IMG/VR virus record: IMGVR_UViG_3300021168_000026
Location: 5,255 to 69,254 of that record
DNA from: a virus
DNA: 64,000 nt
Reading direction: 5' to 3' (one strand)
The notes under the pieces are model-generated. The model saw only the letters and a list, made by a program, of their open reading frames with translations. It did no database searches and was not told the DNA's origin. A program made the translations under genes and the position numbers. Below are positions 6,495 to 63,993 of the stretch, in pieces; positions within the stretch are counted from its first letter, which is position 1; each line of letters opens with the position of its first letter.

Positions 6495-6501
6495 GAGGCC
6501 C

Positions 6502-6530: not shown

Positions 6531-6539
6531 GGCTCGCCA

Positions 6540-10889: not shown

Positions 10890-10890
10890 C

Positions 10891-13547: not shown

Positions 13548-13550
13548 GCC

Positions 13551-14928
<1,378 letters not shown>

Positions 14929-14943
14929 GCCAAGAGGTCAGAA

Positions 14944-35481: not shown

Positions 35482-35542
35482 AGCCTTAGCTTGGGGCAAC
35501 CCCAAACCTTGGGGTCATCCAACCTTTTTGATGGAGATCTGC

Positions 35543-36127: not shown

Positions 36128-36131
36128 GCCT

Positions 36132-37250
36132 ATGCCTTTCACCACCGCAACGCTCGTCTACACCGTCATCCAAGGGGGCGGCGCTTCCCTCAACGATCTC
36201 AACACGCTGATGGCCTTACCGCAGGTCCCTCAAGATGTGCTGGCCCAGATCGGGGCCCGGTTGAATTCAGATGTGACCGTCAGCGGCCTGACGGGCGTGA
36301 CTCGTACGATCGGGCTGTCACTCGCCCCCAGCCCTACCGGCGCCGCAACGGCGATACGGCAACCTAACGGGGGAGCGATCATAGCGGCTATCGTGACAGC
36401 CCCCGGCAAGGGGTACAGCGCCATTCCTCTCATCACTACGCCTCCCCCGGACAAGACCGAGCCCGGAGAGCCGAGAGGCTTCCGAGGGGCTAAGTTCCTC
36501 GGCAGGCTTGATGTCCAAGACGTCGCCGTGGTCAACGCGGGAGACGGGTATGGCGGATCAGTCCAAGCTCGGTTTGTTGGAGGGTTGCAGCCGCCCCGGG
36601 TGGACCCAGCGACCGGTGTCTTGAATGCGCAGTCGTGCGTTCAGGGTATGACGATCGTCGCCCAAGGCCGAGGCTACTCCTCGTTTGCGCAAGTGCAGTT
36701 TGAGGGCTCTACTGTTGTGGGGGGAAGATTACCTCGAGCAGGGTTGGTGCTCGATAGCAAGGGCCGAGTCATAAAGCTCAACATCGTTGACTCCGGTCAG
36801 GGGATGCTCGAAGTGCCGAGCGCGTTCGTTTGGGACCCCGGCCCGGCCAAGGACGGCAAAAACGGTGGCAAGGGTGCCGTCTTGTCAGTGCAGATGGGCA
36901 TCGGTACCGTAGCTACGGCAACCGTCGGAGTGGCAGCGGGTAGTATTACCGGTCTGACTATCGTCAACGCTGGGGGCCCTTACACCGCGATGCCCCAGAT
37001 CATCCTGAGTGATACGAGTGGAACACCCGCGGTTGTAGTGCCGCTGATGGGCCTCCACTCGATCGAAGTGCTCGACCCCGGTGAAGGCTACGCCATTGAC
37101 CCGGCTATTACCGTGACGAGCGCCTTCAATGACTACTACGCCGGGTCGACTGCGGCCCAAGCGGCCCTCGCGTTCGGTGACTTGATGAAGACGTTGCTGG
37201 AGGTTTCGGTGAAATCCCCGGTTGCCGCCGCGACTCCTATCGTCACTTGA
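36132..37250 (+). CDS. Putative virion protein with repeated (I/V)xxxGxGY beta modules
   Basis: About six G.GY-type units. Confidence 0.6.
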   Translation: MPFTTATLVYTVIQGGGASLNDLNTLMALPQVPQDVLAQIGARLNSDVTVSGLTGVTRTIGLSLAPSPTGAATAIRQPNGGAIIAAIVTAPGKGYSAIPLITTPPPDKTEPGEPRGFRGAKFLGRLDVQDVAVVNAGDGYGGSVQARFVGGLQPPRVDPATGVLNAQSCVQGMTIVAQGRGYSSFAQVQFEGSTVVGGRLPRAGLVLDSKGRVIKLNIVDSGQGMLEVPSAFVWDPGPAKDGKNGGKGAVLSVQMGIGTVATATVGVAAGSITGLTIVNAGGPYTAMPQIILSDTSGTPAVVVPLMGLHSIEVLDPGEGYAIDPAITVTSAFNDYYAGSTAAQAALAFGDLMKTLLEVSVKSPVAAATPIVT

Positions 37251-37261
37251 GAGGAGACTCT

Positions 37262-38746
37262 ATGGCTCGAAAGCCCCAAGAGCTCGACGAGCTCGATGAT
37301 GATCTCGATGAGGATGAGTCTGAGGAAGAGGAGCTTGAAGAGGAAAATGAGCCGCAGGCCCAGATAGCTCCTCAGCCGGCCCCCGCGGTATTACCTCAGG
37401 TCAGCGCGCCGACGCAGCGGCCTGCCCAAGCCCACCCTCGGCGGAAGACCCGAGCCAAGGCCAACGGTCTAGGCGCAGTGGTTGGGGATGTTGCCTGGAA
37501 AAATAAAGATGCAGACCTCATGCTGGGCGAAATGCTTGAGCGTCTGAATCGCGATGGTCACTCCCCCTATGAGCTCTCAATTGGAGTCCTCGACCTCAAT
37601 CCGTCTGGCGGGGGGCAAGCTGTCAAATTGGGCTCGTTCGAGATGGCCTCGGTGGTCGGCGACCAATCTCTCTCCCCCGGTGATGCTCTGACAAGAAAGG
37701 TGGAGGACGACTTCCATCTCGCGTCGGGCAAGCTTGGCGGAGGTCTCTACGAGCTGCGGTTCATGTGGAAGGTGAACTCCCAGGTCTACGGTCGAGGGCG
37801 ACTCAGCGTACCGCCGCGAGACCAGCTTCTGCGGATGCGTGCGAGCGCGATGCAGCAAGGCCAGCCCCAGCCTGGGTTTGGTCAACCTTTTGATCCATGG
37901 GGTAGACCAGCACAACCCCCGCAGGGATTCGGCAGCCCGCCTCCAGGGTGGGGTTATGGTCCTCCCCCTACTTGGGGCCAGCCTCCTCCTTACTACTCCC
38001 CGCAGCAGATGCCTCAGGCCCCCCAGGGGATGAATCCTGACACCAAGCACCTCGTCGATACGCTGATCAATCAGCTCAACGAGACGCGCAACGAGCTCGC
38101 GCAGATGCGCAAGGAGCCACCCCCGGCACCCGTTGTAGCGCCACCCTCGGTGGGAGTTGGTGCTCCACCCCAGGCTAGCTTGGAGGAGACGGTGACACGC
38201 GCGGTCTCAGCGGCGATGGGCGCACTCCTACCTCACCTGAGGCCCCAGCAATCCCAAAGCAGCTTGGAGGGTGACCTCACCAAGGCAACGAGCGCGATGC
38301 TGGGAGGATTGATGCAGGCCGCGGTCAAGCGGCTCGGCCAAAACCTCCAGCAAGGTATCTCCCAAGGTCTAGGGGCCCCGGTAGAGATGCCGGCACCCGA
38401 AGACCCCGAAACAGAGCTAGTACCTCCCCCCGATCCTTCCGACGATCTTCCGTTCAAGCAAGTGAAGCTCGAAGCCACATGGCCCGACGGCCGCAACGTG
38501 TATTACCCAGCGAAAAAAGAAGACGGGTCCACCGATTGGCTAGGGGCGCTCTTCACTAACCCTTGGGTGACTGAGAAGCTCGTCGACAATGTCAACAACA
38601 TGGTGGGCAGCGTCGCCGACGCGGTCAAGCGCGTGGGGGTTGCCGGCCCGCACATCGTGCACCACACGCCCAAGGCGGCTCAGGATGCGACTCCTCAGCC
38701 CGAGGCACCCAAGCCGGGGCTAGGATCAGGCGGCTGGGATGAGTAG
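37262..38746 (+). CDS. Acidic, Pro/Gln-rich protein, possible scaffold/assembly factor
   Basis: Poly-acidic N-terminus, PQ-rich middle, repeated G[LFV]G motifs. Confidence 0.6.
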   Translation: MARKPQELDELDDDLDEDESEEEELEEENEPQAQIAPQPAPAVLPQVSAPTQRPAQAHPRRKTRAKANGLGAVVGDVAWKNKDADLMLGEMLERLNRDGHSPYELSIGVLDLNPSGGGQAVKLGSFEMASVVGDQSLSPGDALTRKVEDDFHLASGKLGGGLYELRFMWKVNSQVYGRGRLSVPPRDQLLRMRASAMQQGQPQPGFGQPFDPWGRPAQPPQGFGSPPPGWGYGPPPTWGQPPPYYSPQQMPQAPQGMNPDTKHLVDTLINQLNETRNELAQMRKEPPPAPVVAPPSVGVGAPPQASLEETVTRAVSAAMGALLPHLRPQQSQSSLEGDLTKATSAMLGGLMQAAVKRLGQNLQQGISQGLGAPVEMPAPEDPETELVPPPDPSDDLPFKQVKLEATWPDGRNVYYPAKKEDGSTDWLGALFTNPWVTEKLVDNVNNMVGSVADAVKRVGVAGPHIVHHTPKAAQDATPQPEAPKPGLGSGGWDE

Positions 38747-38776
38747 AAGCTAGCCTTTCATGCTAGGCTTCATCGC

Positions 38777-40249
38777 GTGGCTCAGCTCAACTGGCAGCTC
38801 TCCCCTCGGCCAAGAAGGAAGCTAGGGCTCGGAGAGGGTATCCCATTCGAGCAGTGGGTCCAAGATCCATCCTCACAGGCTGCCCAGGCGTGGGATCAAG
38901 TCCAGGCTCAGCTAGTCGCTGAAGGAGCCCCCTCGGATGCACTGACTGCTGCCAAGGGCGCGTTTGCCGATGCGATCAATCAGGCGACCATCGGCCTCAA
39001 TATCCCCGTCGAGGAGGCGATCAACAACGCCAAGTCGTACGTACTGACGGGCCAGACGATCTTGGGGTACGTCAAGACGGTTCAGGGGTTGGTCAATGAG
39101 GCCCAGGGTATCCACGACGCTCAGACAGCCCTAGCCTTCACCGGGACCCTCATCGGCACTACAGCGACCATCGCCACAGCTGCTGGCGCCGTCTCGGCGG
39201 GTGTCGGGGCCGCGATCGTCGCCGCCGCGGGTGCGATCATTGCGGTACTCGAGGAGCTCCTCGGCCCGGGTAAGCCCCCCGCCGGCACCCAAGTGTGCGG
39301 TGGGTTCTACTGCCAGAACGCCGACTTTACCGTGGGTCCTGTTGGGTTAGGTGGGTGCGTCTGCGGTTGGGGGACCGCCATCGCGCCGGGCAGCGCCGAT
39401 TGGCGGAGCTTCCCCGACTACTCCAAGGCCGAGGACAAAATCTGGTTCACGTGGAGCGCCTCGGATGTTGACTTCGACTGGGGCAAGTCGGCGAACGTCG
39501 CTCACTACAAGAGCCGAGCTGGGTATCGACCGATCGATGCAGCCTTCCAAGCTTACAATCACCTGGAAGCTGACTTCGGCTTCCCGTTTGGTGGGAAGTT
39601 CCAACCGCTGCCCTACATCCTGAACGAGTTCAACATGGCGTGGATCAGTGCGTGGAAGGCCAACGCTGCCTACGCGCTGAACGGCCTCAAGCCCCAAGAC
39701 GATGGGGCTGTTCTCATGCGGCTACTCCGAACGTGGAACCAGGCCCACGAGGACTCCTCGGTTTTTCTCTTAGCCCCAGTGCCGGTGACACCGATCCAGG
39801 CCGCGTTGCCCGTCGTCAACCCATACAACCCCGCGACGACTACCTTCCGGCCGCCATTCACGACCTACTTGGAGATGATCGCGAACAAGATCACCGCGAG
39901 CACTAATGATCCCTCCCTCGTCAGAGATGGGAAGCTACTGATCCATACTGGCGCTAGGAAGACCCCGCCGGTGGCCTCGGTGGGTGGCGGCGGCACACAG
40001 CCGTATTACGGGGGCGGCGGTGACAAGGGCAGCACTACACCAACAGCGAGTGGCTCGGGAAGTAGCGCTGCGGCGACGGTAGCCAAGACTGCCGGGGGAG
40101 TGGGGCTAGTCACGGTGCTCGGTATCGGCGCCTTCGCGCTCGTCAAGCACGTAGCCTTCGCCAAGGCCGCCGAGAAGCTCTACGATCTCTCAATCGGCCG
40201 AGGGGTAAAGGTAGCCGCTAAGGCCTATCGCAAAGCGCGGCGCAAGTGA
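38777..40249 (+). CDS. Membrane-associated putative virion protein
   Basis: Internal Ala/Gly hydrophobic hairpin, C-terminal TM and basic tail. Confidence 0.6.
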   Translation: MAQLNWQLSPRPRRKLGLGEGIPFEQWVQDPSSQAAQAWDQVQAQLVAEGAPSDALTAAKGAFADAINQATIGLNIPVEEAINNAKSYVLTGQTILGYVKTVQGLVNEAQGIHDAQTALAFTGTLIGTTATIATAAGAVSAGVGAAIVAAAGAIIAVLEELLGPGKPPAGTQVCGGFYCQNADFTVGPVGLGGCVCGWGTAIAPGSADWRSFPDYSKAEDKIWFTWSASDVDFDWGKSANVAHYKSRAGYRPIDAAFQAYNHLEADFGFPFGGKFQPLPYILNEFNMAWISAWKANAAYALNGLKPQDDGAVLMRLLRTWNQAHEDSSVFLLAPVPVTPIQAALPVVNPYNPATTTFRPPFTTYLEMIANKITASTNDPSLVRDGKLLIHTGARKTPPVASVGGGGTQPYYGGGGDKGSTTPTASGSGSSAAATVAKTAGGVGLVTVLGIGAFALVKHVAFAKAAEKLYDLSIGRGVKVAAKAYRKARRK

Positions 40250-40659
40250 GCTGGCAAGAGCTCCCGCAAGGCCAGACTTTCACACTGCAACCGGGGATGC
40301 TCTACTCGGTTACGGCCAGCGTGAAGCAAACCCATACCCGAGCCGATCTGGTCAACTTCATCCAAGACCAGGGGCTGGTATTACACGAGCTCCAGGACCC
40401 CGCGGCTGGTCAAGCAGCACCAGGGTATCGAGTAGTGGCCATGCAGGCACAAGCTACTCGAGCCACTCAGATTCCCTGGGCCGTGCCCTGGTACTTGCCC
40501 GGAGATAGCTCGACTTTGCTCCACGTCTGGGCCTCACCCCCAGAAAACGGCAACTTGCAGGTCAACACTCAGCCCGGGCCAACCGTCTGGCCGTGGCTCG
40601 TTGCCGTACCTGCTTTGGCCGGCCTAGGCTACCTCTGGTGGAAACGCCGAGGGAGATAG
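40246..40659 (+). CDS. C-terminally anchored membrane protein
   Basis: WPWLVAVPALAGLGYLWW followed by KRRGR. Confidence 0.65.
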   Translation: MSWQELPQGQTFTLQPGMLYSVTASVKQTHTRADLVNFIQDQGLVLHELQDPAAGQAAPGYRVVAMQAQATRATQIPWAVPWYLPGDSSTLLHVWASPPENGNLQVNTQPGPTVWPWLVAVPALAGLGYLWWKRRGR

Positions 40660-40675
40660 TGTAAGATCCTGTCGC

Positions 40676-41098
40676 ATGGCACTTTCTGTCAAGGCCAAGA
40701 AGCGACTCGGCATCGCCGGGGCCGTCACCACGGGGGTAGCGGCCATTTCCGCGGTGCTGTTTTGGCCCAAGAAGGCCTCGGCTGCCCCAGGAGGGTCAAC
40801 ACCGACTTCAGGTCAGCCTCCTCAAGTAACTCCACCTGAGCCACCGCCAGCTCCGCCAATAGTGCCAAGCTCTGGTAATCAGCCCCCGGCCGATTGCCAA
40901 TGGGTGCCCTCGACGAGCGATCCGGCGGCGGTAACGCTCGCGATGGATATCTCCTACCACGACGATCCGATAGCTTGGGTCGATGGCCACACGTATGGCC
41001 CTGTCCAGATCAACGGAAACTGGTGGAGATTCATCATGGGCTGGGGCATCAACACCGGGAAACGTACCAAGGACGTTAGAGCGGAGAAGTGTCAGTGA
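40676..41098 (+). CDS. N-anchored membrane protein (paralog array)
   Basis: Basic N-terminus, TM, Pro linker. Confidence 0.65.
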   Translation: MALSVKAKKRLGIAGAVTTGVAAISAVLFWPKKASAAPGGSTPTSGQPPQVTPPEPPPAPPIVPSSGNQPPADCQWVPSTSDPAAVTLAMDISYHDDPIAWVDGHTYGPVQINGNWWRFIMGWGINTGKRTKDVRAEKCQ

Positions 41099-41472
41099 AA
41101 AAGTCCAGTGAGAGAGCTTTCTGGATCGGTGGGCTGATCGCCGCCGCGGGAGCTACTGGTGTAGCTGTCTACTTCATCGCCAAGCCCAAAGCCCCGGCAC
41201 CACCTCCGACGACCCCGGTAATACCGCCATCACCTCTGATGGTACAGCTCCCTAACACCTCAGACGTGACTCTTCCTAGCGGTCAGACGCTAATTATCGC
41301 GTCGCCGAACGGCACGCTCATCACAAATCTTCAGGTAGATACCAAACCGCAGGTGCCTGTGATCGTCGGGGGCCAAGGCAACGCGACGGTGGGGCAGCAC
41401 CGGGTGTTTGTTACCTGGACTGACACCAGCGGCGCGTCGACCACGAACACGTTTCTCCTGACGGTGACCTGA
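41089..41472 (+). CDS. N-anchored membrane protein (paralog array)
   Basis: KK....FWIGG...G...Y...KPK; start may be 41095. Confidence 0.7.
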   Translation: MSVKKSSERAFWIGGLIAAAGATGVAVYFIAKPKAPAPPPTTPVIPPSPLMVQLPNTSDVTLPSGQTLIIASPNGTLITNLQVDTKPQVPVIVGGQGNATVGQHRVFVTWTDTSGASTTNTFLLTVT

Positions 41473-41831
41473 TGAAAAAGACAACGAAGCGGGTGCTCTG
41501 GATCGGTGGTCTCGCCGCTGGCGCCGTCGGTGTTGGGGTAGCGGTGCATTACCTCTCCAAGCCCAAGCCACCGTCACTGGCCGGGACCAACGTCAACCTC
41601 CAGATGCCGCCCATCGCAAACAACGCGAGCATCCCTCGCGGGACTAGCCTTACCCTCTTGCCTCCCAGCGGCGGCAAAATCACCGCTATGGCAGTCAATG
41701 GTTCTCCGCAGCCTGGACCCGTCATCGTTGGCGGCCAGAACGCCCCGGTTGGTAGCAACCCGGTTGTCGTAAATTGGACCGACGCCAACGGCGCGCCGGG
41801 GGTCGGTAACTTCAACCTCCAGGTGACGTGA
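41472..41831 (+). CDS. N-anchored membrane protein, paralog of the preceding gene
   Basis: Shared PVIVGGQ, V.WTD..GA, F.L.VT. Confidence 0.7.
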   Translation: MKKTTKRVLWIGGLAAGAVGVGVAVHYLSKPKPPSLAGTNVNLQMPPIANNASIPRGTSLTLLPPSGGKITAMAVNGSPQPGPVIVGGQNAPVGSNPVVVNWTDANGAPGVGNFNLQVT

Positions 41832-42184
41832 TGAAGAAGTCGACCAAAGAGCTTCTCTGTATTACTGGGGCTGTTGCCGGTGTCGGGGCTGTCGCTGGCC
41901 TCATCATCTACCTCGTCAACAAGCCCAAAACCCCAGCAACCGTGGGAACAGGCGCCCTCCAACCGCAGTACGCGGCTCGACAAGCGCAGGTGTTCGCGAC
42001 CATCACGCCGACCGGAGCAAGGTCTCAAGCGACACAGGCTACCCAGGCTGCACCGCATCTCTACAACCCATGGTGGGCCCCACCCTCAGTCCCACAGGTT
42101 CCTTGGGTAGGCCGAGGTGGTGGCGCGGCGAGTGGAAGCTTGAATCCGGCAGCGCCTCCCGGGCCTATCCGTAGTCGACTCTGA
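41828..42184 (+). CDS. N-anchored membrane protein (paralog array)
   Basis: KKSTK..TM..Y..KPK. Confidence 0.65.
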   Translation: MMKKSTKELLCITGAVAGVGAVAGLIIYLVNKPKTPATVGTGALQPQYAARQAQVFATITPTGARSQATQATQAAPHLYNPWWAPPSVPQVPWVGRGGGAASGSLNPAAPPGPIRSRL

Positions 42185-42185
42185 C

Positions 42186-42884
42186 GTGAAGCCTGAGGTC
42201 CTCTGGCTGGGCGGGCTAGTCGTAGGAGCCGGAGCCGTAGTCGGCGCGGTAGCCTTGGCCAGCAAACCGGTCGGGGCTAAACCAAGCTCCCCGGTAGCAG
42301 CCTCCCTGCCAAAAGCCCCGCTGCCGAACCTTGCACCAGCGGTTGCTTTCACGAGACCCACGAACTTCATAACGAGGGCCGCGCCCTCATTCTATCGAGG
42401 CGGGCTATTGCCTCCCCCGCAATCCCAACCGATAACTCCAGCGCCGGTTCCCTTAGCTGGAGACTCGCTCCAGCAACATAACCTCCAAGTGGTCAACGCC
42501 TACCGCTCTCGGCTAGGAGTGGCACCGCTGATATTAGATATAAGACTTAGCTCTTTCGCCATGGCTGGCTCCCAGCAGCTCTCTCAAGACCACATACCTC
42601 ACCAGCATATTCGCTCAGCCGTAGCCGCGGGGACCCTATTCAACCCAGAAAACGGTTTCGCTCAAGAAGCCGGGGAAAATCAAGGCAGCCCCGTCGGATG
42701 GCCGCCGGAAGACGAGACCCAACAAATCGATGAAGCTCTCGCGATGATGTTTGCCGAGGGCCCCGGCCAAGGGGAAGAGCACGGTCACTACATGAACATC
42801 GTCAACCCCAGATTTACCCGGCTTGGGGTAGGCTTGCTGCTTGTTGGTGGTAGGTTGTACATGACCAACGATTTCTCGAGCTAA
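42186..42884 (+). CDS. Membrane-anchored CAP/SCP-domain protein
   Basis: VN.YR...G..PL, GEN, GH..NI......LGVG, Y.T.DF. Confidence 0.8.
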   Translation: MKPEVLWLGGLVVGAGAVVGAVALASKPVGAKPSSPVAASLPKAPLPNLAPAVAFTRPTNFITRAAPSFYRGGLLPPPQSQPITPAPVPLAGDSLQQHNLQVVNAYRSRLGVAPLILDIRLSSFAMAGSQQLSQDHIPHQHIRSAVAAGTLFNPENGFAQEAGENQGSPVGWPPEDETQQIDEALAMMFAEGPGQGEEHGHYMNIVNPRFTRLGVGLLLVGGRLYMTNDFSS

Positions 42885-42886
42885 CG

Positions 42887-43480
42887 ATGAAGCAATCCAC
42901 CAAAGATGCTCTCTGGCTCGGCGGGGTTGTCACGGGCGTTGGCGCTCTCGCTGGAACCATCGTCTATATGGCCGGCAAACCTGCCTCGGCTCCAACAAGC
43001 ACTGGCGACAGCGCTGGGGCCAAGAACCCCAATGCCTCAGCGCTAGCCCCAACATCAACCCCATCAACGAACCCACCTGCCGCCAACCTCGTCGCGCCCG
43101 GGCCTCCGCCAAGCCAGGTGCCGACTAGTATTCCGAGCCCCCAGGGGCCATCGTTCCCAACGGCAGGCTTCTTCCCCGCCGATCAGTCGGCCATCACTGA
43201 GCCAACTGTCGCTCTCGTTGGAGGCCGTCGCTACAACGTCACTTACTCGGCGACCAACCCCAACAACCCCTTCGAGACGTCTTGGCTAGATAGCTACTCG
43301 AGCTGGAGGGGCCCCGATGGCGGTATCGTCAAGGGGGTTAGCGGGGGTTCCAGGAGCTTCAGCTACCAGTTCATCGCATCTAGGTCGATCAACCTGCCGT
43401 TGAGCGCTTTTCTCACCCCCATCGCGGCTCATGTCAACGGCCTCGGTATCCAAGGGAGCCCCTCCGTAGTGCCGCTTTGA
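42887..43480 (+). CDS. N-anchored membrane protein (paralog array)
   Basis: KQSTK.ALWLGG...Y...KP. Confidence 0.65.
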   Translation: MKQSTKDALWLGGVVTGVGALAGTIVYMAGKPASAPTSTGDSAGAKNPNASALAPTSTPSTNPPAANLVAPGPPPSQVPTSIPSPQGPSFPTAGFFPADQSAITEPTVALVGGRRYNVTYSATNPNNPFETSWLDSYSSWRGPDGGIVKGVSGGSRSFSYQFIASRSINLPLSAFLTPIAAHVNGLGIQGSPSVVPL

Positions 43481-43506
43481 GCCACTGTGGTAGGATGTAA
43501 GCCACG

Positions 43507-44919
43507 ATGGCCAAGGCTGGGTACAACGTCGAGGCCTATCCCCCCGGGCCGGCTGGTATCAGGCGGAGCGTCGATGAGGTCGCGAAAGCGATGCGAGATG
43601 GTCGCATCGATGAGGCTGTGCGCGGCTGGGCGATCGATCAACTCACCAAGCGGGGGATCGATGGCCGTAATCATCCTTCGATCAAAGCAAGGACCCAAGC
43701 GCTTCTTGACGCTGTGCGGGCTCAAACGATCTACGTGCCCGACCCTCAGGGCGCGGAATGGATCCAGAAGCCACATGTCACTCTTTGCCTCCGCGATCGG
43801 TGCATCCCCGGCGAGGACTGTGACGGCGTCACGGCCGCGCTTGGTGCAGCTCTCCTGAGCATTGGCCTACCCGCCTATGCAGTGAAGGTCACCTACGGGC
43901 AAGATCACCAAGAGCATATTCTCGTCGGGATCATTGATGAAAACGGCACCAAGCTCTACGCCGACCCCTCGACCAACGCGGCGGTCATGGTGAGGGTCCC
44001 CAACGCCGTCGATGAGGTATGGATCGACCCTCTTGATTCTTCATCGGTTCACATCGGAACTAGTGGAGCAGAGTTTGTAACTCTTGGCAGCCCCCTCGGT
44101 AGCCCTTGCGGCCGACAGCTTTTCTTCAAGGCCGGCCACTGGTTCGAGATGTACAAGGGCCAGTGGTGGATGCACGTTGGTGGGAAGTGGATACCGGGGC
44201 CGGTCGACTACCCCGAAAAAGCCGGCTTGATGGGGCCTTACCTCAACAGGCAGCGGCAACTTTGCGTGGCGCGCGATGGCGTTGAGATTGAAGTCACGCC
44301 ACAACAAGCTGGCCTCGGCACGATCGGCATCCCGAGGCTCGTTCAGTGGCACACGGTCCACGAGCTCTCCGATCTGCTCAACGCGCTGACGAGGCAGGTT
44401 CAGCATATCGACGCTGCCTTCAACGGCCCCGGCGGCCAAGCGTGGTTTCAAGCCGACCCCACGGCATACGGCGCTTGGGCGAGCAAGTACGTGTCAGCCC
44501 GCAGCGCCTGGGATCCCACCGTCGCCAAGGCTACCCTCGTTGTTCACCCGGTAACACCCAACACGCTCAGCTGGGATTGGGTCGTGTCGACGGCACCTGA
44601 TGGCACCGACATGTTCGATGCCGTCGCGAAGGCGTTCATGCCCTTCGAAGACTTGGATCGCGAGCTGCGCGGCTCGGCAACCTTCCCTCCCTCGGAGCTG
44701 CCCAATTACTCAGACACACCCCAGCCTACCGCACCGGACTTCGAGCTCACCGAGTATCAGATCGCCGACAGCGGGTGGCAGGCAGCCAAGCAGTTGGGGC
44801 AGAAGGCCAACGATGTATTGCAGCAAGCCGCGCCTTACCTCGCGCTGGCTGCCGCGGGCGTCGCGCTCTATGCGACGTATCGGATCGCTGACGCTCTCCC
44901 TCGGCCAAGGCGGGCCTAA
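43507..44919 (+). CDS. Transglutaminase-like cysteine protease domain protein with C-terminal TM
   Basis: Y..DP...E, EDCDG (Cys), EHI (His), ADPS (Asp). Confidence 0.75.
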   Translation: MAKAGYNVEAYPPGPAGIRRSVDEVAKAMRDGRIDEAVRGWAIDQLTKRGIDGRNHPSIKARTQALLDAVRAQTIYVPDPQGAEWIQKPHVTLCLRDRCIPGEDCDGVTAALGAALLSIGLPAYAVKVTYGQDHQEHILVGIIDENGTKLYADPSTNAAVMVRVPNAVDEVWIDPLDSSSVHIGTSGAEFVTLGSPLGSPCGRQLFFKAGHWFEMYKGQWWMHVGGKWIPGPVDYPEKAGLMGPYLNRQRQLCVARDGVEIEVTPQQAGLGTIGIPRLVQWHTVHELSDLLNALTRQVQHIDAAFNGPGGQAWFQADPTAYGAWASKYVSARSAWDPTVAKATLVVHPVTPNTLSWDWVVSTAPDGTDMFDAVAKAFMPFEDLDRELRGSATFPPSELPNYSDTPQPTAPDFELTEYQIADSGWQAAKQLGQKANDVLQQAAPYLALAAAGVALYATYRIADALPRPRRA

Positions 44920-45389: not shown

Positions 45390-45398
45390 GAGGCTCAG

Positions 45399-46958: not shown

Positions 46959-47011
46959 CGAGCCTGCCGGATAGGGCCTGAGAGGCTACCCGGTAAAAAG
47001 AAAGAAAAACC

Positions 47012-48409
47012 ATGTTGAAGCAAGCAGATCTCCTCAAGCAACACATGAGCGTCGCCCGGAAGGACTTCAAGCCGCAGGGCAAGTTCCTCCCCAAGGCGCC
47101 GCCCGACCAGCGCCGAATCCTCGGCCTGGGCGCTCCCCCGATCAACGCCGAACGCCTCAAGATGGCCGCGAATCCGCGTGAAGGCATCGGCGCGATCATC
47201 GACGCGATCAAGGACAGCGTCGACTGCCCCGTCTGGAACATGGACGTCATCGAGCAGGTGCGCTGGAACCTCCAGGGCCCCATCGATGACCAGGCAGTCA
47301 CCGCGAGCTTCGGTGCCGAGATCGACCTCTTCGGATCGGGCCGTCAGGTTGATGGTGTCGACTACGTCGAGACTACGATGGCGCAGACGGGCCAGACCCA
47401 GACGTACATGGTGGCCTGCTACATCGGCTTCCACCTCGAGCCCGAGCCCTTGTGCTGGACGGCCCAGGGCAACGCGTGGAGCCACCCGGTGGTCGGAGTT
47501 GCGACCGGTGCGGTTCCGATCTCGCCGGATGTCTTCACCCAGAACGACCGTTTCAACGGCGCGCTTGGTGCGGCGATGTCCGGCGCTACCCCCACGCAAG
47601 TGTTCGTTCCGGCGGTCCTCGAGTGGGGCTGGTGGGCGAACTACGTCGCGTGGATGATGGCCCGCGCATACAACCTGCGTTGGAAGATCGGCCAGCACAC
47701 GAACATCATGGATGAGGTGTTGCGACACACCGCGTACATGCCCCCCTCGGCGCAAGAGGGCTCTGCCTCTAGCTCTGAAGTTGACATCGTCGACTTCGTG
47801 CGGCGCCTCAACGACCGCTACGACTCGCTGGGAACGGCGCTCAACTTCCTCAAGATCAACCGATTGAGGATCGGGTCGGTTCTTGGAACCGCGGCGACGA
47901 ACCTCGGCATCTTCAAGCCGGATCGCTCGCACGAGTTGGTCGGTGCAACCTACGGCGGTATGGATCTCCGGTCGATGTTGAGAGGCAACAGCGAGTTCCG
48001 CAAGCTCGTACTGCCCTACGTCATCAAGCCGGGCGTCCCCATCGGGCTCATCCTCCAGGAGAACGACCAGGTCCAGGGCGACATCATGCGCCGGTACCTG
48101 TCCGTGACCGAGCGGTTCGGCACCACGCCCCCGCTCATCACCGACCAGGTCAACATCCCCGCCGAGGAAGACGGCACCAACGCAACCCCGGTTGGTCTCG
48201 AGCGCACGGTCGACGGCTTCAACGTCGCGCAGCAGATGGACACGGATCGTGCCCTCTTCAAGGGCGGTGAGCTCAAGATCAGCCTCATGGTCAAGGGCTT
48301 CGAGGTCACGGAGAACTGGTACGACGTTCTGAAGAGCAACCCGGATCTCATGGCGGCCGTTACGGACGCTTGCGGTATCCGGTTCGCGATGCAGGGCGCC
48401 GCAGCCTAA
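47012..48409 (+). CDS. Candidate major capsid protein (fold not determinable by eye)
   Basis: Very strong C/G-ending codon bias, 465 aa beta-rich, followed by a hairpin, centre of the virion module. Confidence 0.5.
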   Translation: MLKQADLLKQHMSVARKDFKPQGKFLPKAPPDQRRILGLGAPPINAERLKMAANPREGIGAIIDAIKDSVDCPVWNMDVIEQVRWNLQGPIDDQAVTASFGAEIDLFGSGRQVDGVDYVETTMAQTGQTQTYMVACYIGFHLEPEPLCWTAQGNAWSHPVVGVATGAVPISPDVFTQNDRFNGALGAAMSGATPTQVFVPAVLEWGWWANYVAWMMARAYNLRWKIGQHTNIMDEVLRHTAYMPPSAQEGSASSSEVDIVDFVRRLNDRYDSLGTALNFLKINRLRIGSVLGTAATNLGIFKPDRSHELVGATYGGMDLRSMLRGNSEFRKLVLPYVIKPGVPIGLILQENDQVQGDIMRRYLSVTERFGTTPPLITDQVNIPAEEDGTNATPVGLERTVDGFNVAQQMDTDRALFKGGELKISLMVKGFEVTENWYDVLKSNPDLMAAVTDACGIRFAMQGAAA

Positions 48410-48426
48410 TTCCCGGCGAGAAGGGT

Positions 48427-48475
48427 GAAGCCCCCGACTGCGCGGCCCATGCTAGGCTAGCGTGGCGGGGGCTTC
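48427..48475 (+). terminator. Stem-loop after the candidate capsid gene
   Basis: GAAGCCCCCG...CGGGGGCTTC inverted repeat, no U-tract. Confidence 0.55.
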
Positions 48476-48517
48476 GGCCTATCAGAGGCGCTGAAACACA
48501 AATTTAGAGGCAGCCAA

Positions 48518-49267
48518 ATGTCTGAGATTGTGACGTTTACCCCCGAGCAATTCAACGAATTCCTCAAAGCGTTTGGCAAAGCGCCTGGCTTGGCGGCCCC
48601 CCAAGGCCCCCAGCATGTGAAGGTGCTTGGTCTCGGCTGCGGTGAAGGGGGGCCGCTTTACTCAGGCGTCTACGAGATGCTTGCGTTGGGAAGCCCCCGG
48701 CTGGCTTTGGCTAAGGCCCTCGGTTACCGGTTTGTGCCCTACTACATGAACATCCGGGCGACGTTCTCCAACGTCGATACCGTTGACGTTCCGACGGTCG
48801 GCTCCGACGTCAAGATTGACCAGGATACGCTCGTTGACCAGATGACGTTCGTCATCATCAACAAGAGCGACACCGCGAACAAAAACATCCAGCAAACGCT
48901 GAGCGATTTTTTCTTCAATTTCCAAAGTGGCATTGAGGCTACGTTGGATGTTCAAGGTGCGCCTCGGCCGACCCTCGCGCCGAAATTCACACCACTCAAG
49001 AACCTGGCCGATGTCACCAACTGTACTCGGTGGCCTTACGGGTTTGTACTCACCTACCAGCAACAGTTGGAAGCTAGCTTTCGGGCCAGTGTGACTCTCC
49101 CCTATGCGCCGATTGAGGTCGTGTTGACCTTTCGATCTTGGGTGCCCGACACCGAGGCTTTCGTTGGCATGACCAACAAGCAGGCTTTTGAGGGCTTGAG
49201 CCAGCAATGCGGTATCACCTGCGATCCGGCTTACATCGATCGTACCTACGCTCAAGCAACCCGGTAA
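48518..49267 (+). CDS. Candidate minor/second capsid protein
   Basis: Beta-rich; LGLG at about the same position as in 47012. Confidence 0.45.
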   Translation: MSEIVTFTPEQFNEFLKAFGKAPGLAAPQGPQHVKVLGLGCGEGGPLYSGVYEMLALGSPRLALAKALGYRFVPYYMNIRATFSNVDTVDVPTVGSDVKIDQDTLVDQMTFVIINKSDTANKNIQQTLSDFFFNFQSGIEATLDVQGAPRPTLAPKFTPLKNLADVTNCTRWPYGFVLTYQQQLEASFRASVTLPYAPIEVVLTFRSWVPDTEAFVGMTNKQAFEGLSQQCGITCDPAYIDRTYAQATR

Positions 49268-49271
49268 ACGT

Positions 49272-50072
49272 GTGGCTAGAAAGATCGAAATCGCCTCAGT
49301 TGGGTTCGATGAAGGCCTCCAAGGGATAGGGGGAGACGCCTTCGGGGGAACCTCCGCGGTCGGTCTCCGGGTCCCGACTCTAGCTAGCGGCAGCCCTACT
49401 ACGCCGAAGCGGTATCTCTTCATGCTAGCCGCGTTTAGCGTCTCTGAGAACGCTCAGGCTCGGATTGTCGGGATGCGGCAAATGACCCGCATAGGCTTCC
49501 GGCAACCGCCTGGGGGAGAGGTCCCCGCGGCCTCGGCACCTTATACAGTCACTCAGCTCGTCGAGGACCCGGCCTGGCGCTTTCAGGATGGGAACGTCAG
49601 CTACCACTTGCAGAGACTCGGGCCGCCCAACAGCCAGGGGTTTCCCTCAGTACCATCGGCAACTGACCTTCGGAACCTCGTCAATGGGTTTTCGATGACC
49701 CCGGCCTTGCTCTACAGCAAGATAACTGTGGTCGGCCCCCAGTACGTCAACCTGACGGAATACTTGCCGCCCAACGGAGGCAAACCGTGGGGTACCCCTC
49801 TTGGCTCGGGGCATCAAAACACCATCCTAGACATTCGCGCGCCCTGGGCCGAGTCGACGGGTTGGATCTCGCTCGACATGGAGCTTGAGGGGCCCGATAC
49901 GGTTGCCCTCTTCGCAAGTGTTTTCCAAACTGACCCCCTCGTCAGGCCCACACTAGTAACCCCAACCCCGTTCTTCCCCGAGGGGCTCTCTCGTGAAGAG
50001 CAGTTCCTCAAAAACTTCCCCAACGCGATCTACTGGAGCGTCGCTGGGTCTCTCATCGTGGAGCTGCCATGA
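49272..50072 (+). CDS. Putative virion protein
   Basis: Beta-rich ORF in the same operon. Confidence 0.45.
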   Translation: MARKIEIASVGFDEGLQGIGGDAFGGTSAVGLRVPTLASGSPTTPKRYLFMLAAFSVSENAQARIVGMRQMTRIGFRQPPGGEVPAASAPYTVTQLVEDPAWRFQDGNVSYHLQRLGPPNSQGFPSVPSATDLRNLVNGFSMTPALLYSKITVVGPQYVNLTEYLPPNGGKPWGTPLGSGHQNTILDIRAPWAESTGWISLDMELEGPDTVALFASVFQTDPLVRPTLVTPTPFFPEGLSREEQFLKNFPNAIYWSVAGSLIVELP

Positions 50073-50497
50073 CCGACGATCCTCGTTGGGGTGAAATTGC
50101 GTTTGCCCTCGATACTCCGACTCGGCCTAGAACGCCAGAGCAGATCGCTGCGCTGTTGAAGTCTCTCGATGAGCTCAAGAACACATACAATAGTCTCATC
50201 AGCGCGCAGCAGCAGAATCGAAATACTATCGATTCGTTGAAGGCCCAACTAGCTTCAGCGCAAGCTACAGCTCCCTCGGCTCCGCCGACTGGCTCTGATA
50301 AGGCAGGCGCCCCCGGCCCGAACAATACCCCCGCGCCTGGCCAGGTGTATATCTCAGCCCCCGCAGCCGGGGCTGTAGCGCTCATCGCGGCCATCGTTGG
50401 AGGCGGCGCCGGCTACGCAATCCGTGGCCATCTCGACAAGGGCAAGCATAAGAAGCTCGCCGCCAAGGAAACCCCCCAGATCGAGGAAGAGGAGTAG
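50069..50497 (+). CDS. Coiled-coil membrane protein
   Basis: Heptad region and C-terminal TM. Confidence 0.6.
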   Translation: MTDDPRWGEIAFALDTPTRPRTPEQIAALLKSLDELKNTYNSLISAQQQNRNTIDSLKAQLASAQATAPSAPPTGSDKAGAPGPNNTPAPGQVYISAPAAGAVALIAAIVGGGAGYAIRGHLDKGKHKKLAAKETPQIEEEE

Positions 50498-50502
50498 TTG
50501 TC

Positions 50503-51827
<1,325 letters not shown>

Positions 51828-51832
51828 GTTCT

Positions 51833-52306
51833 ATGCCTTTCCCTAAAGCCTCTCGCGCAAGCGTCAACAGGCTCAATGCGCAAACTGCTATCGTCCAGGG
51901 AGAGGCTTCGGACACAACGAGGATATTTGCCAACTCCGTCGCCCTGGTCAACTCGGCTCCGATCACCTCCCCTGGCAATATCACGCTCGCAGCTCCCGCA
52001 GTGGCCCCTATCGGCACTGGCCAAGGGTTTCGCATTACGGGGTCGATGTACGGTCTATGCAACATCGTCGGCGCCACCGTGACCTTGCGTTTGTTCCGCG
52101 ATCTCACTAGCGTGGGGCCGATCGCTGTCAGTGTAGCTGTCTCAGCAGCGGTGACCTCGAACAACATCGCTGGCGGCTCGATTCAGTGGATCGATGTGCC
52201 TGGGGATAGCGCTCCACATGTCTACTCGATCCACGCCACGGTCGATACGGGAACCTTCCAAGTCCCGACCGGTGAAGCCTCCATCACCGTTGAGCAACGC
52301 GGTTAG
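51833..52306 (+). CDS. Fibre-head paralog without collagen stalk
   Basis: WIDVP...HVYS...G.A.I.VE matches the head of 51099. Confidence 0.6.
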   Translation: MPFPKASRASVNRLNAQTAIVQGEASDTTRIFANSVALVNSAPITSPGNITLAAPAVAPIGTGQGFRITGSMYGLCNIVGATVTLRLFRDLTSVGPIAVSVAVSAAVTSNNIAGGSIQWIDVPGDSAPHVYSIHATVDTGTFQVPTGEASITVEQRG

Positions 52307-52322
52307 AAAGCAGGTTTTCTAG

Positions 52323-55046
52323 ATGGGCCTCAATCGCATTCGGGCCGAGCTCCGGAGGCTTGAGGAGCTCATCGAACTACTGCTTGGCGGTGCCGGTGGT
52401 GGATCAGGCGGGTCATCGCAGCTTTCGGCGGCTAGCGTAGCTGCGCTTTCTACCCTCACTCCTACGGGATCAACGACGAGCGTAGAGCTACTTGGATTCT
52501 CGACGCCTGGCGATGGAGGCGGCGGTACTCTCGCCCTGGCGACTAGTGCGAGGCCGGTTGACGGAGGAACGGTATTCGCCGTTGCGGGCGATGTTACCAA
52601 ACGGTGGCTTCGCATTTTCTCGGGCCCCTACGATATTCGGTGGTTCGGGGGCAACGCTAGCAGTCCAGACAATACCGGAGCCATTCTCGCCGCTCAAACA
52701 GCAATCACCAGCGCTGGTACGACTACCAAGACGGTATATTTCGCGCCAGGGACCTTTTCAACTACTGGGGTTATCGCTGTTCCTCGAAATATCACTTGGC
52801 AGTTTGAAGAAGGAGCGATGATTAGCCCATCAGCCGCGGTCACAATCGGCGGAGTTATCATTGCCAGCTCAATACAACAGATTTTTACTGGGGCGCTAGG
52901 GAATATCTCGTTTACCCCTGGCATCCAACGATTTATTGGCACTGACTGGTTTGGTGCCAAGGGCGACAACATAACGAATAGCGTTGTTGCCTTACAGGCC
53001 TCGGCCGATGCTACCCCTCAACACGAGACGTTACTACTAGGAGGGGGCTCATATCGAACAGGGTTTCCGTGGAGGCCTTGCCGCAATAAGCCTATTAGTG
53101 TCATAGGGCCCACCTTCCAAGACGGTTCTGGTAATCAGGGTACAGCCCGCATCTTCCCCGACCCAACGATCGGGCCTCTTTGGTCAGGTCCGGTTATCAC
53201 TGTAGTCGGAGAGCAGTTTCAACAGGGTGGTCCGGCGGGGCTCTATCCGATTACTCCGAGCGGCAATTTCTTCTGCATCAATTTCGATAATAGTGGAAAC
53301 CCGAATCATTGTATTATCCCTAGCGAGGCTGATCTGGGTGAGATCAATGGTCTAGGGGCTGGCGTCGGCCCAGGATCTGGCTTCACGTTCGAATTGATGT
53401 TTGACCCTCAAGGCAATCATGGGGTCAACGGGTCTGTTATAGCGGCTAGTAGCGGCATCGAACATGGCGGGGCTGTCTCTGCGGATGTGGCCTTTCGGCT
53501 AGTGATGACAGATACCTTCCACATCAATGTTATGATGACATTGACGGGAGGAGTTGTCAGCTTCAATAGCGCGGCAACAGTTCCAGCTAACATCCTCCAG
53601 CACATCGCAGTGACTTACGATCAGTCGGCTGTAAAGCTATGGCTCAACGGCAACCTCGATACCTCGGTGCCGGCCAGTGGAACTATCGTACAACAACCGT
53701 GGGAGACATTCTGTATCGGTTACTCTAACGGGTTCTGGCCTCTATCCAATCTAGACCTAGGGCATGTGTACGGTCCCGTTTTGATGGATTCAATCCGGTG
53801 CCGAACTAGCGCGGTATACACGGCAAACTTCACGCCTCCGACGAGTGAGCTCGATACGGGCGGCGATGATTGCCTCTTTCTACTCAACTTCAACCCGAGT
53901 AATATTGTTATGGGTGGAGGGTGGGTCGCTGCGGCATCGACGGTTAGACGCATGAACCTTCCCGCTGGCTGCCCCGTCTATCTCTATTTGGCGAGAGGGT
54001 GTAATACCAATACTCTCGGCCAGGTCTTGATCCAAGACGTTGCTGTACAAAATGGCGGTGGAGTATTTGGTGCTAGGGCTATCTTCTCAGATGCCGCCAA
54101 CTCCTGCACCTTCCGCCGAGTGACCACGGCCGCAGTATTCTCAGGGATCACCTACACCGGGTACGGCCATCTGATCGACGACTGTATCCTGGAGGCGACG
54201 ACGGGTATGACGGGCTTCTCGTTCTGCGCTGGTTCCTACGCCCAGGCCAATGGTGGTAGCGCAAATACGCATCGTGGAGGTATCTGGAACGGCGGCTGGG
54301 TAACTGCGGCTTGTATCAGTGGTGGGTACTTCGCCAACATATTCGTCAACGGCCCCCCATCATTCTCAGGGCTCTATTGTGCGGCAAGCATCTCTGACAA
54401 CGGCTCGTTGACGGTGATCAACGTCATCTGGGATGATGAGCAAGCTCCGCCAGGGACCATTGACTCCGGCATGCACATTGACGGCATGGCTACGGTCATC
54501 CTCATGAACAATTCACCGTGTGGATTGGGCGCTAGTCAATGCCCTGTCTATCGGATTGGTAACTATAATAGCTTCCAGGTGACCGACGATATACTAGGCA
54601 TCAATCCCTCGTCACCAGGGATATTTAGTTTCTTCAATACGGTGAATGCGTTCGGCCCACTACCTCCACTCGTTTTCAACTCACCGCCCCCGTTGGCCGG
54701 TACAGCGATCATAGACCCCGATAATCCCGGGCCGGTTATAGTGCCTCAACGGATGGTGAACAGTCAACACGTGTTGAACTTCACAGTCGATGCCAATTTC
54801 TCGATGACTTTGAACGATGAGACATTTGGCCTCATAAAGATGACTGATACTGGGGCGGTGCTAACGGGCTCTAAGATTGTCTTCTTGCCGTTTCTAGGTA
54901 ACGGGTATCGCCGTACGGTAGTCAATGCGACCCTTCAGGCCCTGACGTTCAAGAGCCCAACTGGCACCGGCGTCCTCGTTGCTGCGGGTGCTGCGGCAGA
55001 TATCGTCTGCGACGGCACCAACTGGGTACTGGTGCCTGTCAGCTGA
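52323..55046 (+). CDS. Tailspike-like receptor-binding protein (pectate-lyase-like beta-helix with LamG/ConA insert)
   Basis: GF.TPGDGGGG, WFG...DN..A twice, HIAVTYD...LWLNG. Confidence 0.75.
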   Translation: MGLNRIRAELRRLEELIELLLGGAGGGSGGSSQLSAASVAALSTLTPTGSTTSVELLGFSTPGDGGGGTLALATSARPVDGGTVFAVAGDVTKRWLRIFSGPYDIRWFGGNASSPDNTGAILAAQTAITSAGTTTKTVYFAPGTFSTTGVIAVPRNITWQFEEGAMISPSAAVTIGGVIIASSIQQIFTGALGNISFTPGIQRFIGTDWFGAKGDNITNSVVALQASADATPQHETLLLGGGSYRTGFPWRPCRNKPISVIGPTFQDGSGNQGTARIFPDPTIGPLWSGPVITVVGEQFQQGGPAGLYPITPSGNFFCINFDNSGNPNHCIIPSEADLGEINGLGAGVGPGSGFTFELMFDPQGNHGVNGSVIAASSGIEHGGAVSADVAFRLVMTDTFHINVMMTLTGGVVSFNSAATVPANILQHIAVTYDQSAVKLWLNGNLDTSVPASGTIVQQPWETFCIGYSNGFWPLSNLDLGHVYGPVLMDSIRCRTSAVYTANFTPPTSELDTGGDDCLFLLNFNPSNIVMGGGWVAAASTVRRMNLPAGCPVYLYLARGCNTNTLGQVLIQDVAVQNGGGVFGARAIFSDAANSCTFRRVTTAAVFSGITYTGYGHLIDDCILEATTGMTGFSFCAGSYAQANGGSANTHRGGIWNGGWVTAACISGGYFANIFVNGPPSFSGLYCAASISDNGSLTVINVIWDDEQAPPGTIDSGMHIDGMATVILMNNSPCGLGASQCPVYRIGNYNSFQVTDDILGINPSSPGIFSFFNTVNAFGPLPPLVFNSPPPLAGTAIIDPDNPGPVIVPQRMVNSQHVLNFTVDANFSMTLNDETFGLIKMTDTGAVLTGSKIVFLPFLGNGYRRTVVNATLQALTFKSPTGTGVLVAAGAAADIVCDGTNWVLVPVS

Positions 55047-55096
55047 ACCCTAGCCAGCCTCTTGCAATTCCTGTAGCAGGCGCTACGTTGCTCCCC

Positions 55097-63342: not shown

Positions 63343-63993
<651 letters not shown>

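Follow-up and report, generated by a model that had tools for sequence, protein, structure and literature searches.

A 69 kb, probably temperate virus with a candidate jelly-roll capsid module and no detectable terminase or packaging ATPase

The DNA analysed here is a window of 64,000 bases (contig bases 5255-69254) of the 69,254-base IMG/VR virus record IMGVR_UViG_3300021168_000026; positions are those of the window unless the contig is named. With moderate confidence we read the record as the ~69 kb genome of a temperate, non-tailed bacterial virus, whose jelly-roll, probably membrane-containing virion would be made from a gene module at 36-55 kb, with a major capsid protein (MCP) of double jelly-roll fold and packaging that needs no motor. 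Gene content, the lack of hallmark families, the closure of the genome, codon bias, the conserved six-gene core and, as predicted models, the folds are shown. The lack of a tail, the presence of a membrane and the ATPase-free packaging are points that we infer. A first inspection of the letters (the sequence-only reading) had already suggested a tailless lineage, and named an HK97 fold in the product of 47012-48409 and tailed-phage hallmark genes in the flanking sequence as findings that would speak against it. Both were looked for and neither was found, which supports the suggestion.

The genome is closed, about 69 kb long and circular or terminally redundant, with little or nothing missing. 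The final 121 bases of the contig (window 63880-64000) are identical to contig bases 21-141, and because its ends share this overlap the genome closes on itself; the record is therefore complete although labelled 'linear'. CheckV rates the completeness of the 69,254-base contig at 92%. A 9-base tandem array of GGCGGGGGC and GGCGAGGGC units (~13 copies, window 63795-63917 and contig bases 1-57) adjoins both copies of the overlap, and the contig start falls within it. The array sits within an open reading frame (ORF) that spans the junction, and its copy number is unequal at the two contig ends. Circularity and the flanking sequence had both been proposed as checks. The 5,254 bases beyond the window encode an SNF2-family helicase, a weakly metallopeptidase-like protein, a KGG-repeat protein and small ORFs, and no terminase, portal or A32/FtsK-type ATPase. 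The window holds no tRNA genes.

No terminase, portal, HK97 capsid, tape measure or baseplate gene had been recognised by eye, and searches at two levels upheld this. About 60 ORFs of the contig were scanned with Pfam and/or PHROGs. Six-frame searches, which are independent of ORF calls, covered four genomes, namely that of the window and three relatives rated 100% complete; 14 genomes served as positive controls, and every search matched 3 to 14 of them. None of the five families appeared in the scans of the ~60 ORFs, save for generic repeat-domain matches of the 372 amino acid (aa) protein at 36132-37250. The PHROG matches (best E 3.1e-13) fall in the repeat regions of families of giant proteins labelled 'virion structural protein', 'head closure Hc2' and 'baseplate wedge'. 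In six frames, the large terminase families Terminase_6N (PF03237) and TerL_ATPase (PF03354), Phage_portal (PF04860; other portal families were covered only by the ORF scans) and Phage_capsid (PF05065; the sole HK97 Pfam family searched in this way) were each found in 0/4 genomes, with the controls positive. BLAST against the three complete relatives revealed no further conserved large ORF able to conceal a terminase or portal, and there is no long tape-measure-like ORF among the ORFs listed. Seventeen of the 20 ORFs at 33904-51099 had no PHROG match at E 0.01, and only a RadC and a CAP domain in this region exceed the Pfam cut-offs.

A packaging ATPase was sought in the same genomes. FtsK_SpoIIIE (PF01580) was found in six frames in none of the four, again with positive controls. 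The strict Walker A motif is confined to VapE, a Sak4-like protein, a UvrD-like helicase and a deoxynucleoside monophosphate (dNMP) kinase, and relaxing the pattern to GK[ST] brings in the SNF2 helicase besides a few sites that are implausible; by neither scan does the virion module contain a plausible P-loop. The virion modules of the relatives are likewise without one, except for a chance match in a small KGG-type protein of one relative. By these scans the Sak4-like ATPase is the sole small P-loop protein, and as a packaging enzyme it was set aside on account of its full-length Sak4/AAA_24 profile matches and its position in the replication block. The sequence-only reading, which saw no packaging ATPase, supposed that it lay beyond the window or that packaging differed. 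The absence stands; the location beyond the window does not, the 5,254 flanking bases being without such a gene.

The candidate MCP gene, encoding 465 aa (47012-48409), had been singled out as highly biased, and its codon bias proved to be the strongest of the 31 genes compared: the effective number of codons is 34.9 and the GC content at third codon positions is 0.86, versus 42.4-61.0 and 0.57-0.77 in the 30 other genes. An AlphaFold2 model built on a 76-sequence alignment has a mean predicted local distance difference test score (pLDDT) of 87.6 and a predicted template modelling score (pTM) of 0.85. It consists of a poorly ordered N-terminal arm (residues 1-60) and two beta blocks (Table 1) joined by a linker helix (residues 260-272), with two helices after the second block. 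Double jelly-roll capsid proteins, as characterised in the available text of PMC8812541, have two eight-stranded barrels with helices after strands F and F', and sometimes bracketing terminal helices. The 465 aa protein is probably such a double jelly roll; the model fits by the order of its elements, without superposition. From its codon bias, the two-barrel model and its large conserved family we infer that it is the major shell protein.

The structural neighbours of this model are capsid proteins for the most part. Among the 40 Protein Data Bank (PDB) rows listed by Foldseek, 30 are capsid proteins of icosahedral viruses, which we take to be jelly-roll based. They include papillomavirus (HPV) L1, STIV (E 0.15), tetraviruses, SPV1, a microvirus (PJNS002 according to the available text of PMC12328618), Pariacoto virus, Lake Sinai virus and faustovirus (E 0.68), none of them significant. 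The matches listed from BFVD are led by capsid proteins of astroviruses, hepeviruses and circular Rep-encoding single-stranded (CRESS) DNA viruses, the highest probability (0.57) belonging to a 211 aa viral protein. HK97-fold proteins are absent from the 40 PDB rows, so that a confident model (pLDDT 87.6) gives no sign of the HK97 fold that would have spoken against a tailless virus. Pfam revealed no recurrent family and no match in any of the 76 family members, and profiles of four families (A1, A3, A4 and A5) found nothing below E 0.79 among PDB sequences. A two-copy complex prediction of the 465 aa protein (score 0.02, mark 0.42) says nothing either way, and an Atlas structure search with this protein was disregarded for its poor model (pTM 0.16).

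Directly downstream of the 465 aa gene lies the gene for a 249 aa protein, so that a single jelly-roll minor capsid gene appears to stand beside the major one. Its AlphaFold2 model (pLDDT 84.8, from a 59-sequence alignment) has eight strands flanked by N- and C-terminal helices. The top Foldseek match is the SPV1 capsid reconstruction chain 6oj0_A (E 3.8e-4, probability 1.00, template modelling (TM) scores 0.33/0.41), the sole one at E <=0.001. Further matches are a cyanophage decoration chain, nucleoplasmin cores, Ena pilins, picornavirus VP chains and the SH1 chain 6qt9_a (E 0.018). In SPV1 the two proteins of the outer shell are both single jelly rolls (PMC8459092). We regard the 249 aa protein as a candidate for the vertex or for a second shell protein. 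For the adjoining 266 aa protein, an Atlas model (pTM 0.54) is nearest to a cluster of 154 aa from CRESS-DNA viruses (TM 0.62), which we treat as a lead only.

The 249 and 266 aa proteins could together account for the shell of the same type of virus, as two single jelly rolls do in sphaerolipoviruses and SSIP-1. In that case the 465 aa gene would encode something different, for instance a vertex complex, a sub-capsomer lattice or an outer protein of high abundance. Both genes are core genes and adjacent, the smaller protein matches SPV1 and SH1 capsid chains, the larger one is nearest to a cluster of small CRESS-virus proteins, and SSIP-1, P23-77 and IN93 each reportedly encode two types of capsid protein (PMC6356626). 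We nevertheless consider such a shell unlikely, given that the extreme codon bias belongs to the 465 aa gene and not to this pair, and that the order of strands and helices in the 465 aa protein fits two jelly rolls. Nor is there an ATPase gene ahead of the pair, unlike in sphaerolipoviruses. In Bamfordvirae, moreover, a single jelly-roll penton gene usually comes after the double jelly-roll gene.

A hydrophobic-G-hydrophobic-G motif is conserved within residues 24-40 of both the 465 and the 249 aa family, in their low-confidence N-terminal arms. Of 76 sequences of the 465 aa family, 72 have G38 and 72 have G40; in the 249 aa family G38 is found in 59/59 and G40 in 55/59. The motif may mark a site of processing, or of contact with the membrane or the lattice. 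The glycine-rich cleavage sites of adenovirus-type capsid proteases resemble it, and it could be a target of the Cys-His-Asp protein encoded at 43507-44919.

A number of results weigh against our reading of these proteins and of the virion. Foldseek found no match to the 465 aa model at E 0.001 or better in PDB or BFVD; the best E values were 0.023 and 0.046, respectively, with TM-scores mostly of 0.05-0.15 and at most 0.25. Because these matches are not significant, the double jelly-roll assignment is based on how the secondary-structure elements follow one another. Profile comparisons (best E 0.12) showed no similarity among the 465, 249 and 266 aa families, between the N- and C-terminal halves of the first, or between either half and the 249 and 266 aa families. 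The match of the 249 aa protein is modest at TM 0.33/0.41, and its list includes cellular beta-sandwiches (nucleoplasmin, Ena pili and FlhE) besides the decoration chain of a tailed cyanophage. In a language-model feature search the 465 aa protein was nearest to short viral clusters (scores 0.88-0.90, few shared features), and in two of these clusters 15% and 100% of the members carry HK97-type Pfam families. The proteins of SSIP-1, a tailless membrane-containing phage, gave no credible BLAST or hhalign match to the present family, the best being ORF35 against the 266 aa family (probability 17.6%, 25 columns). Tailed phages, too, commonly have collagen-like fibres, S74 chaperone domains and LamG spikes, all of which are encoded here.

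Some of these points would be expected of a very divergent tailed phage, with hallmark genes too distant for any profile. The fibre genes of tailed-phage type, the head closure and baseplate wedge labels on the PHROG matches of the 36132-37250 product, the weak language-model leads to HK97-type families and the many core ORFs without an assigned function are all compatible with it. We regard it as very unlikely, as the two TerL families, portal and HK97 capsid were found in none of the four genomes with controls that were positive, no unassigned P-loop ORF is available to serve as a terminase ATPase, no tape-measure-like ORF is listed, and the most biased gene yields a confident model without an HK97 match.

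The candidate shell proteins belong to a large family. At E 0.001 or better, the 465 aa protein retrieved 152 representative clusters among 1.84 billion proteins, 70 of them at <=1e-30 and most of 410-480 aa, while 207 and 180 homologs, none with a name beyond 'hypothetical', were retrieved with the 249 and 266 aa proteins, respectively. Four IMG/VR contigs carry the 465 aa protein (73.4, 37.8, 76.0 and 77.3 kb), and the last two end in direct terminal repeats and are 100% complete by CheckV. The relatives are metagenomic contigs of 62-99 kb; 16 of the 120 homologs listed for the 249 aa protein are on contigs in this size range. Two longer contigs, of 132 and 148 kb, that turned up among the homologs of the 266 aa protein are candidates for integrated copies. 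BLAST of all ORFs against the three complete relatives defined two cores. The replication core comprises SNF2, an exonuclease, VapE, the Sak4-like protein, a 199 aa ORF, UDG, PolA, the UvrD-like helicase and RadC; the virion core comprises the genes starting at 35426, 36132, 37247, 43507, 44919, 45399, 47012, 48518, 49272, 55088 (KGG) and 55605 (GroES), together with the integrase. The order of the genes for the 470, 156, 519, 465, 249 and 266 aa proteins is kept in four viral contigs and three complete genomes. It also recurs, at ~30% identity, on a 17,017-base contig of 67.7% GC binned with a Polyangiaceae metagenome-assembled genome (MAG). On a second contig of the same MAG lies a gene whose product shares 57% identity with the 465 aa protein, so that two different members occur in one bin. 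Of the two short MAG contigs that a scan of a genome collection gave, one is labelled Chloroflexota. Among 401 genomes of the phylum of the Polyangiaceae MAG, only that MAG itself was found. No match to the 465, 249 or 266 aa core proteins was obtained with tblastn in 50,697 deposited phage records, and a search of 72,556 plasmid records with the 465 aa protein also gave none. Literature searches, in which few subscription journals were covered, found no description of such a family.

It is highly improbable that the DNA does not come from a bacterial virus at all, being instead a non-viral mobile element (a plasmid or integrative element) with surface-protein genes, or a eukaryotic virus. True, it has no sequence-level hallmark of any established bacterial virus group and encodes many secreted or membrane proteins and collagen-like repeats, and eukaryotic double jelly-roll viruses of 35-45 kb exist (available text of PMC11253617). 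The jelly-roll models are, however, capsid-like, the ORFs overlap and are tightly packed, and many genes are of bacterial type (tyrosine integrase, PolA, VapE, Sak4, RadC, HNH, GroES and holin-like). Conjugation genes are lacking apart from one sub-threshold TrbI match, the plasmid records gave no match, and relatives are found in Polyangiaceae and Chloroflexota MAG bins.

Among the remaining genes of the virion module, the claim of more than a dozen single-pass membrane proteins is roughly right, at about 12. A Kyte-Doolittle scan gave nine ORFs with at least one hydrophobic helix in 38777-50497, six of them consecutive with N-terminal anchors (40676-43480), and three more (starting at 40246, 43507 and 50503) have C-terminal anchors, slightly under the threshold, that were recognised by eye. 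A similar N-terminal anchor, with a K/R-rich start and a G/A/V-rich helix, is seen in seven small proteins (40676-43480 and 1765-2220) whose outer domains are unrelated; those encoded at 41089-41472 and 41472-41831 are paralogs. The product of 42186-42884 has a CAP/SCP domain (PF00188, E 1.7e-8). In the variable block 40246-43480 only 40246-40659 has a BLAST relative, in 1/3 genomes, and 40676-43480 looks like a fast-changing cassette that is unconserved in relatives. At the left end of the module, the acidic 233 aa protein has no Pfam or PHROG match, and the 499 aa protein is a candidate scaffold or internal protein.

A transglutaminase-like protein had been reported for the module, and this is borne out in part for the 470 aa protein. 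The window protein itself has no Pfam match, but PF01841 matches 3/23 members of its family (best E 3.8e-4), and all 23 have C105, H137 and D153. It is a candidate maturation protease or wall-degrading enzyme. The H1-like basic protein of the sequence-only reading is borne out by composition, the 519 aa protein having an isoelectric point (pI) of 10.8 and 31% K+R (66% K/R/A/S/G) in residues 1-225. A hydrophobic segment follows at residues 240-258, and the middle part is conserved in 3/3 relatives. We regard this protein as a candidate link between DNA and membrane, and the 156 aa basic protein as a candidate for association with DNA.

Taken together, these genes suggest how the virion might be built. 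The 465 aa protein would form the icosahedral shell as MCP, with the 249 and 266 aa proteins supplying vertices or further shell, and the ~12 small membrane-anchored proteins would populate an inner membrane, as in PRD1-type, PM2-type and SPV1 virions. Vertex spikes or fibres would be formed by the collagen-like protein and the 907 aa LamG protein. As no packaging ATPase of a known type is encoded, we propose that the membrane-anchored H1-like protein condenses the DNA, possibly helped by the KGG proteins and the basic 156 aa protein, and that the DNA is enclosed during assembly. Membrane and shell would assemble around the condensed genome, as described for SPV1, instead of the DNA being pumped into a preformed shell. 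The flexible N-terminal arms of the shell proteins may be substrates of the Cys-His-Asp protein, and the viral GroES, a core gene product, may assist the folding of an abundant shell protein.

Table 1. Features of the window and of the modelled 465 aa protein. Positions are in the window, except for the two model blocks, which are in residues; functions are predicted.
Feature	Position	Strand	Basis or remark
Four collagen-repeat proteins	5619-6494, 12945-13547, 13551-14138, 14131-14928		second fibre locus
S74 chaperone-domain protein	7313-8164		second fibre locus
GT1 glycosyltransferase-methyltransferase fusion	8161-9936		second fibre locus
Sak4-like / AAA_24 ATPase	22108-22896	+	PHROG 124 E 5e-18; PF13479 E 3.8e-10; replication block
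Acidic protein, 233 aa, pI 4.5	35426-36127	+	first conserved gene past the replication block; relatives in 3/3 complete genomes
Repeat-domain virion protein, 372 aa, recurring GxGY motifs	36132-37250	+	PHROG; kept in 3/3 relatives
499 aa protein, acidic N-terminus, P/Q-rich middle	37247-38746	+	partly conserved in 3/3 relatives; no family match
490 aa candidate virion membrane protein	38777-40249	+	hydrophobic segments 132-150, 329-347, 438-456; relatives in 2/3 genomes
Seven small ORFs, variable block	40246-43480	+	six with N-terminal membrane anchor, differing outer domains
Transglutaminase-like (papain-fold) Cys-His-Asp protein, 470 aa	43507-44919	+	core gene; hydrophobic C-terminal tail
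Basic protein, 156 aa, pI 10.2	44919-45389	+	core gene; no family match
Histone-H1-like protein, 519 aa	45399-46958	+	K/A/S-rich N-terminal half, hydrophobic middle, proline-rich C-terminus
Candidate major capsid protein, 465 aa	47012-48409	+	two beta blocks, each much like an eight-stranded one (probable double jelly roll); strongest codon bias
465 aa model, block 1	strands 78-87, 118-121, 132-144, 147-157, 198-205; helix 207-219; strands 220-226, 230-236, 254-258		
465 aa model, block 2	strands 277-281, 284-291, 297-303, 309-314, 330-338, short 346-350; helix 353-363; four strands ending at 432		
Single jelly-roll protein, 249 aa	48518-49267	+	AlphaFold2 model and Foldseek; candidate vertex (penton) or second capsid protein
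Conserved core protein, 266 aa	49272-50072	+	candidate further capsid or vertex protein; 180 homologs
Two proteins, 142 and 198 aa, C-terminal membrane anchors	50069-51099	+	segment 93-111 in the first; second by eye
Collagen-like fibre protein, 242 aa, and adjoining 157 aa protein	51099-52306	+	PF01391 E 1.7e-10; tandem repeats 51306-51364
907 aa spike or fibre protein	52323-55046	+	LamG-type lectin domain PF13385 E 2.5e-9
Late accessory cluster	55088-56726	+	KGG basic protein, two-transmembrane holin-like protein, GroES, papain-family (C1) peptidase-like protein
Tyrosine integrase	59205-60251	-	PF00589 E 1.6e-24; kept in 3/3 relatives

Outside the virion module, family matches agree with the earlier recognition of replication, fibre, lysis and integrase genes. 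The left half encodes an Mre11-like exonuclease, a PD-(D/E)XK exonuclease, a VapE primase-helicase, the Sak4-like ATPase, an HNH endonuclease, UDG, a family A polymerase (PolA), a UvrD-like helicase, the dNMP kinase, dCMP deaminase, ThyX and a RadC-domain protein. The last, of 525 aa (33904-35481), combines a RadC-like JAB domain (residues 398-519) with a long N-terminal region that has no family match; the relatives keep the RadC part only. The tyrosine integrase suggests a temperate life style.

There are five collagen-repeat fibre genes in total, four of them in a second fibre locus (5619-16422) that is distant from the virion block and also encodes a 492 aa secreted protein; its gene content hints at glycosylated fibres. 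The 907 aa protein has, besides its lectin domain, a weak pectate-lyase-like region (PF12708, E 5e-4, under its cut-off). In the late cluster, the two-transmembrane protein and the C1 peptidase-like protein (Peptidase_C1, E 1.7e-5) make up what resembles a lysis cassette, and between them lies the gene for a GroES/Cpn10 co-chaperonin (55605-55895; PF00166, E 1.6e-17, and PHROG GroES), kept in 3/3 complete relatives. The small basic KGG protein (55088-55345; PF10685, E 1.3e-14) is a core gene product with 60-69% identity in three relatives, and a second KGG-repeat paralog is encoded at contig 670-1065 (PF10685, E 2.3e-13). KGG-repeat proteins are an uncommon find in a virus, and these two might bind DNA.

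In its broadest form our proposal is of a widespread undescribed lineage, of family to class level and possibly outside the current kingdoms of Varidnaviria, that is temperate, has genomes of 62-99 kb, a jelly-roll capsid and an inner membrane, and packages without a motor by H1-like condensation. We put this forward tentatively, as a possibility that is more doubtful than the reading of the single genome. Large jelly-roll viruses are commonly regarded as a eukaryotic matter. If true, the lineage would be a bacterial counterpart of SPV1 at more than three times its genome size, and a prokaryotic example of jelly-roll viruses growing large without a packaging ATPase. It would widen the prokaryotic size range of this architecture about two- to ten-fold and allow the packaging of a long genome without a motor to be tested; proof of motor-free nucleoprotein assembly and of a separate origin for its shell proteins would bring it close to being a new kind. 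It would also show that virus mining based on terminase, portal and HK97 genes misplaces or misses such genomes; the Atlas taxon labels of the clusters nearest to the 465 and 266 aa proteins are Uroviricota. With 152 clusters and 207 and 180 homologs, the family is sufficiently large for a host and a culturable member to be sought.

Among known tailless viruses, PRD1, PM2 and other Bamfordvirae (Tectiviridae, Corticoviridae and Autolykiviridae) resemble the present family in layout: a single jelly-roll gene comes after a candidate two-barrel capsid gene, amid many genes for small membrane proteins and spikes. Members of the PM2 group are temperate, as this virus appears to be. The family differs from the PRD1/PM2 group in that an FtsK-type ATPase was found in 0/4 genomes, the genomes are 4-10 times larger and the similarity of the capsid fold is not significant. 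The surveyed prokaryotic double jelly-roll viruses have genomes of 7-18 kb, typically with an FtsK-HerA packaging ATPase (in the survey text available from PMC5894146). The FtsK-HerA (A32-like) ATPase, which would point to Bamfordvirae, is missing here and also from their accepted member FLiP; the available text of PMC8812541 gives SPV1 and FLiP as accepted jelly-roll viruses without a packaging ATPase.

Sphaerolipoviruses (SH1 and P23-77; Helvetiavirae) have adjacent genes for small shell proteins and an internal membrane, and a capsid chain of SH1 matches the 249 aa protein (E 0.018). Their genomes are of 16-31 kb, with an ATPase gene beside the two capsid genes. Where the Helvetiavirae layout has that ATPase gene ahead of the two capsid genes, here the P-loop-free 465 aa gene precedes the 249 and 266 aa pair.

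The early claim of an unusually large genome is confirmed, at 69 kb and, for relatives, 76.0 and 77.3 kb versus the 7-18 kb of the survey and 43.8 kb for SSIP-1. The tailless prophages of Vibrio are smaller than 16 kb, going by the available text of PMC11630473. SSIP-1, the largest characterised tailless membrane-containing phage that was retrieved, is circular and has almost no database similarity; its genome of 43,788 bp shows that over 40 kb fit into this architecture. Compared with it, the present genomes are larger by a factor of 1.6-2.3.

SPV1 (Portogloboviridae), finally, provides the best structural match of the 249 aa protein. It has a single jelly-roll shell, an inner lipid layer, many small membrane proteins and circular dsDNA in a nucleoprotein core (PMC8459092). 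The fold match and the missing ATPase agree with these viruses; a membrane and a nucleoprotein core are predicted here, and host domain and genome size differ. SPV1 has an archaeal host, a 20 kb genome without a polymerase of its own and no sequence similarity to the present family, whose genomes of 62-99 kb carry a full replication set, an integrase and the additional 465 aa two-barrel protein. We place the virus as akin to the internal-membrane viruses of the PRD1, PM2 and SPV1 types, but do not file it in any existing family.

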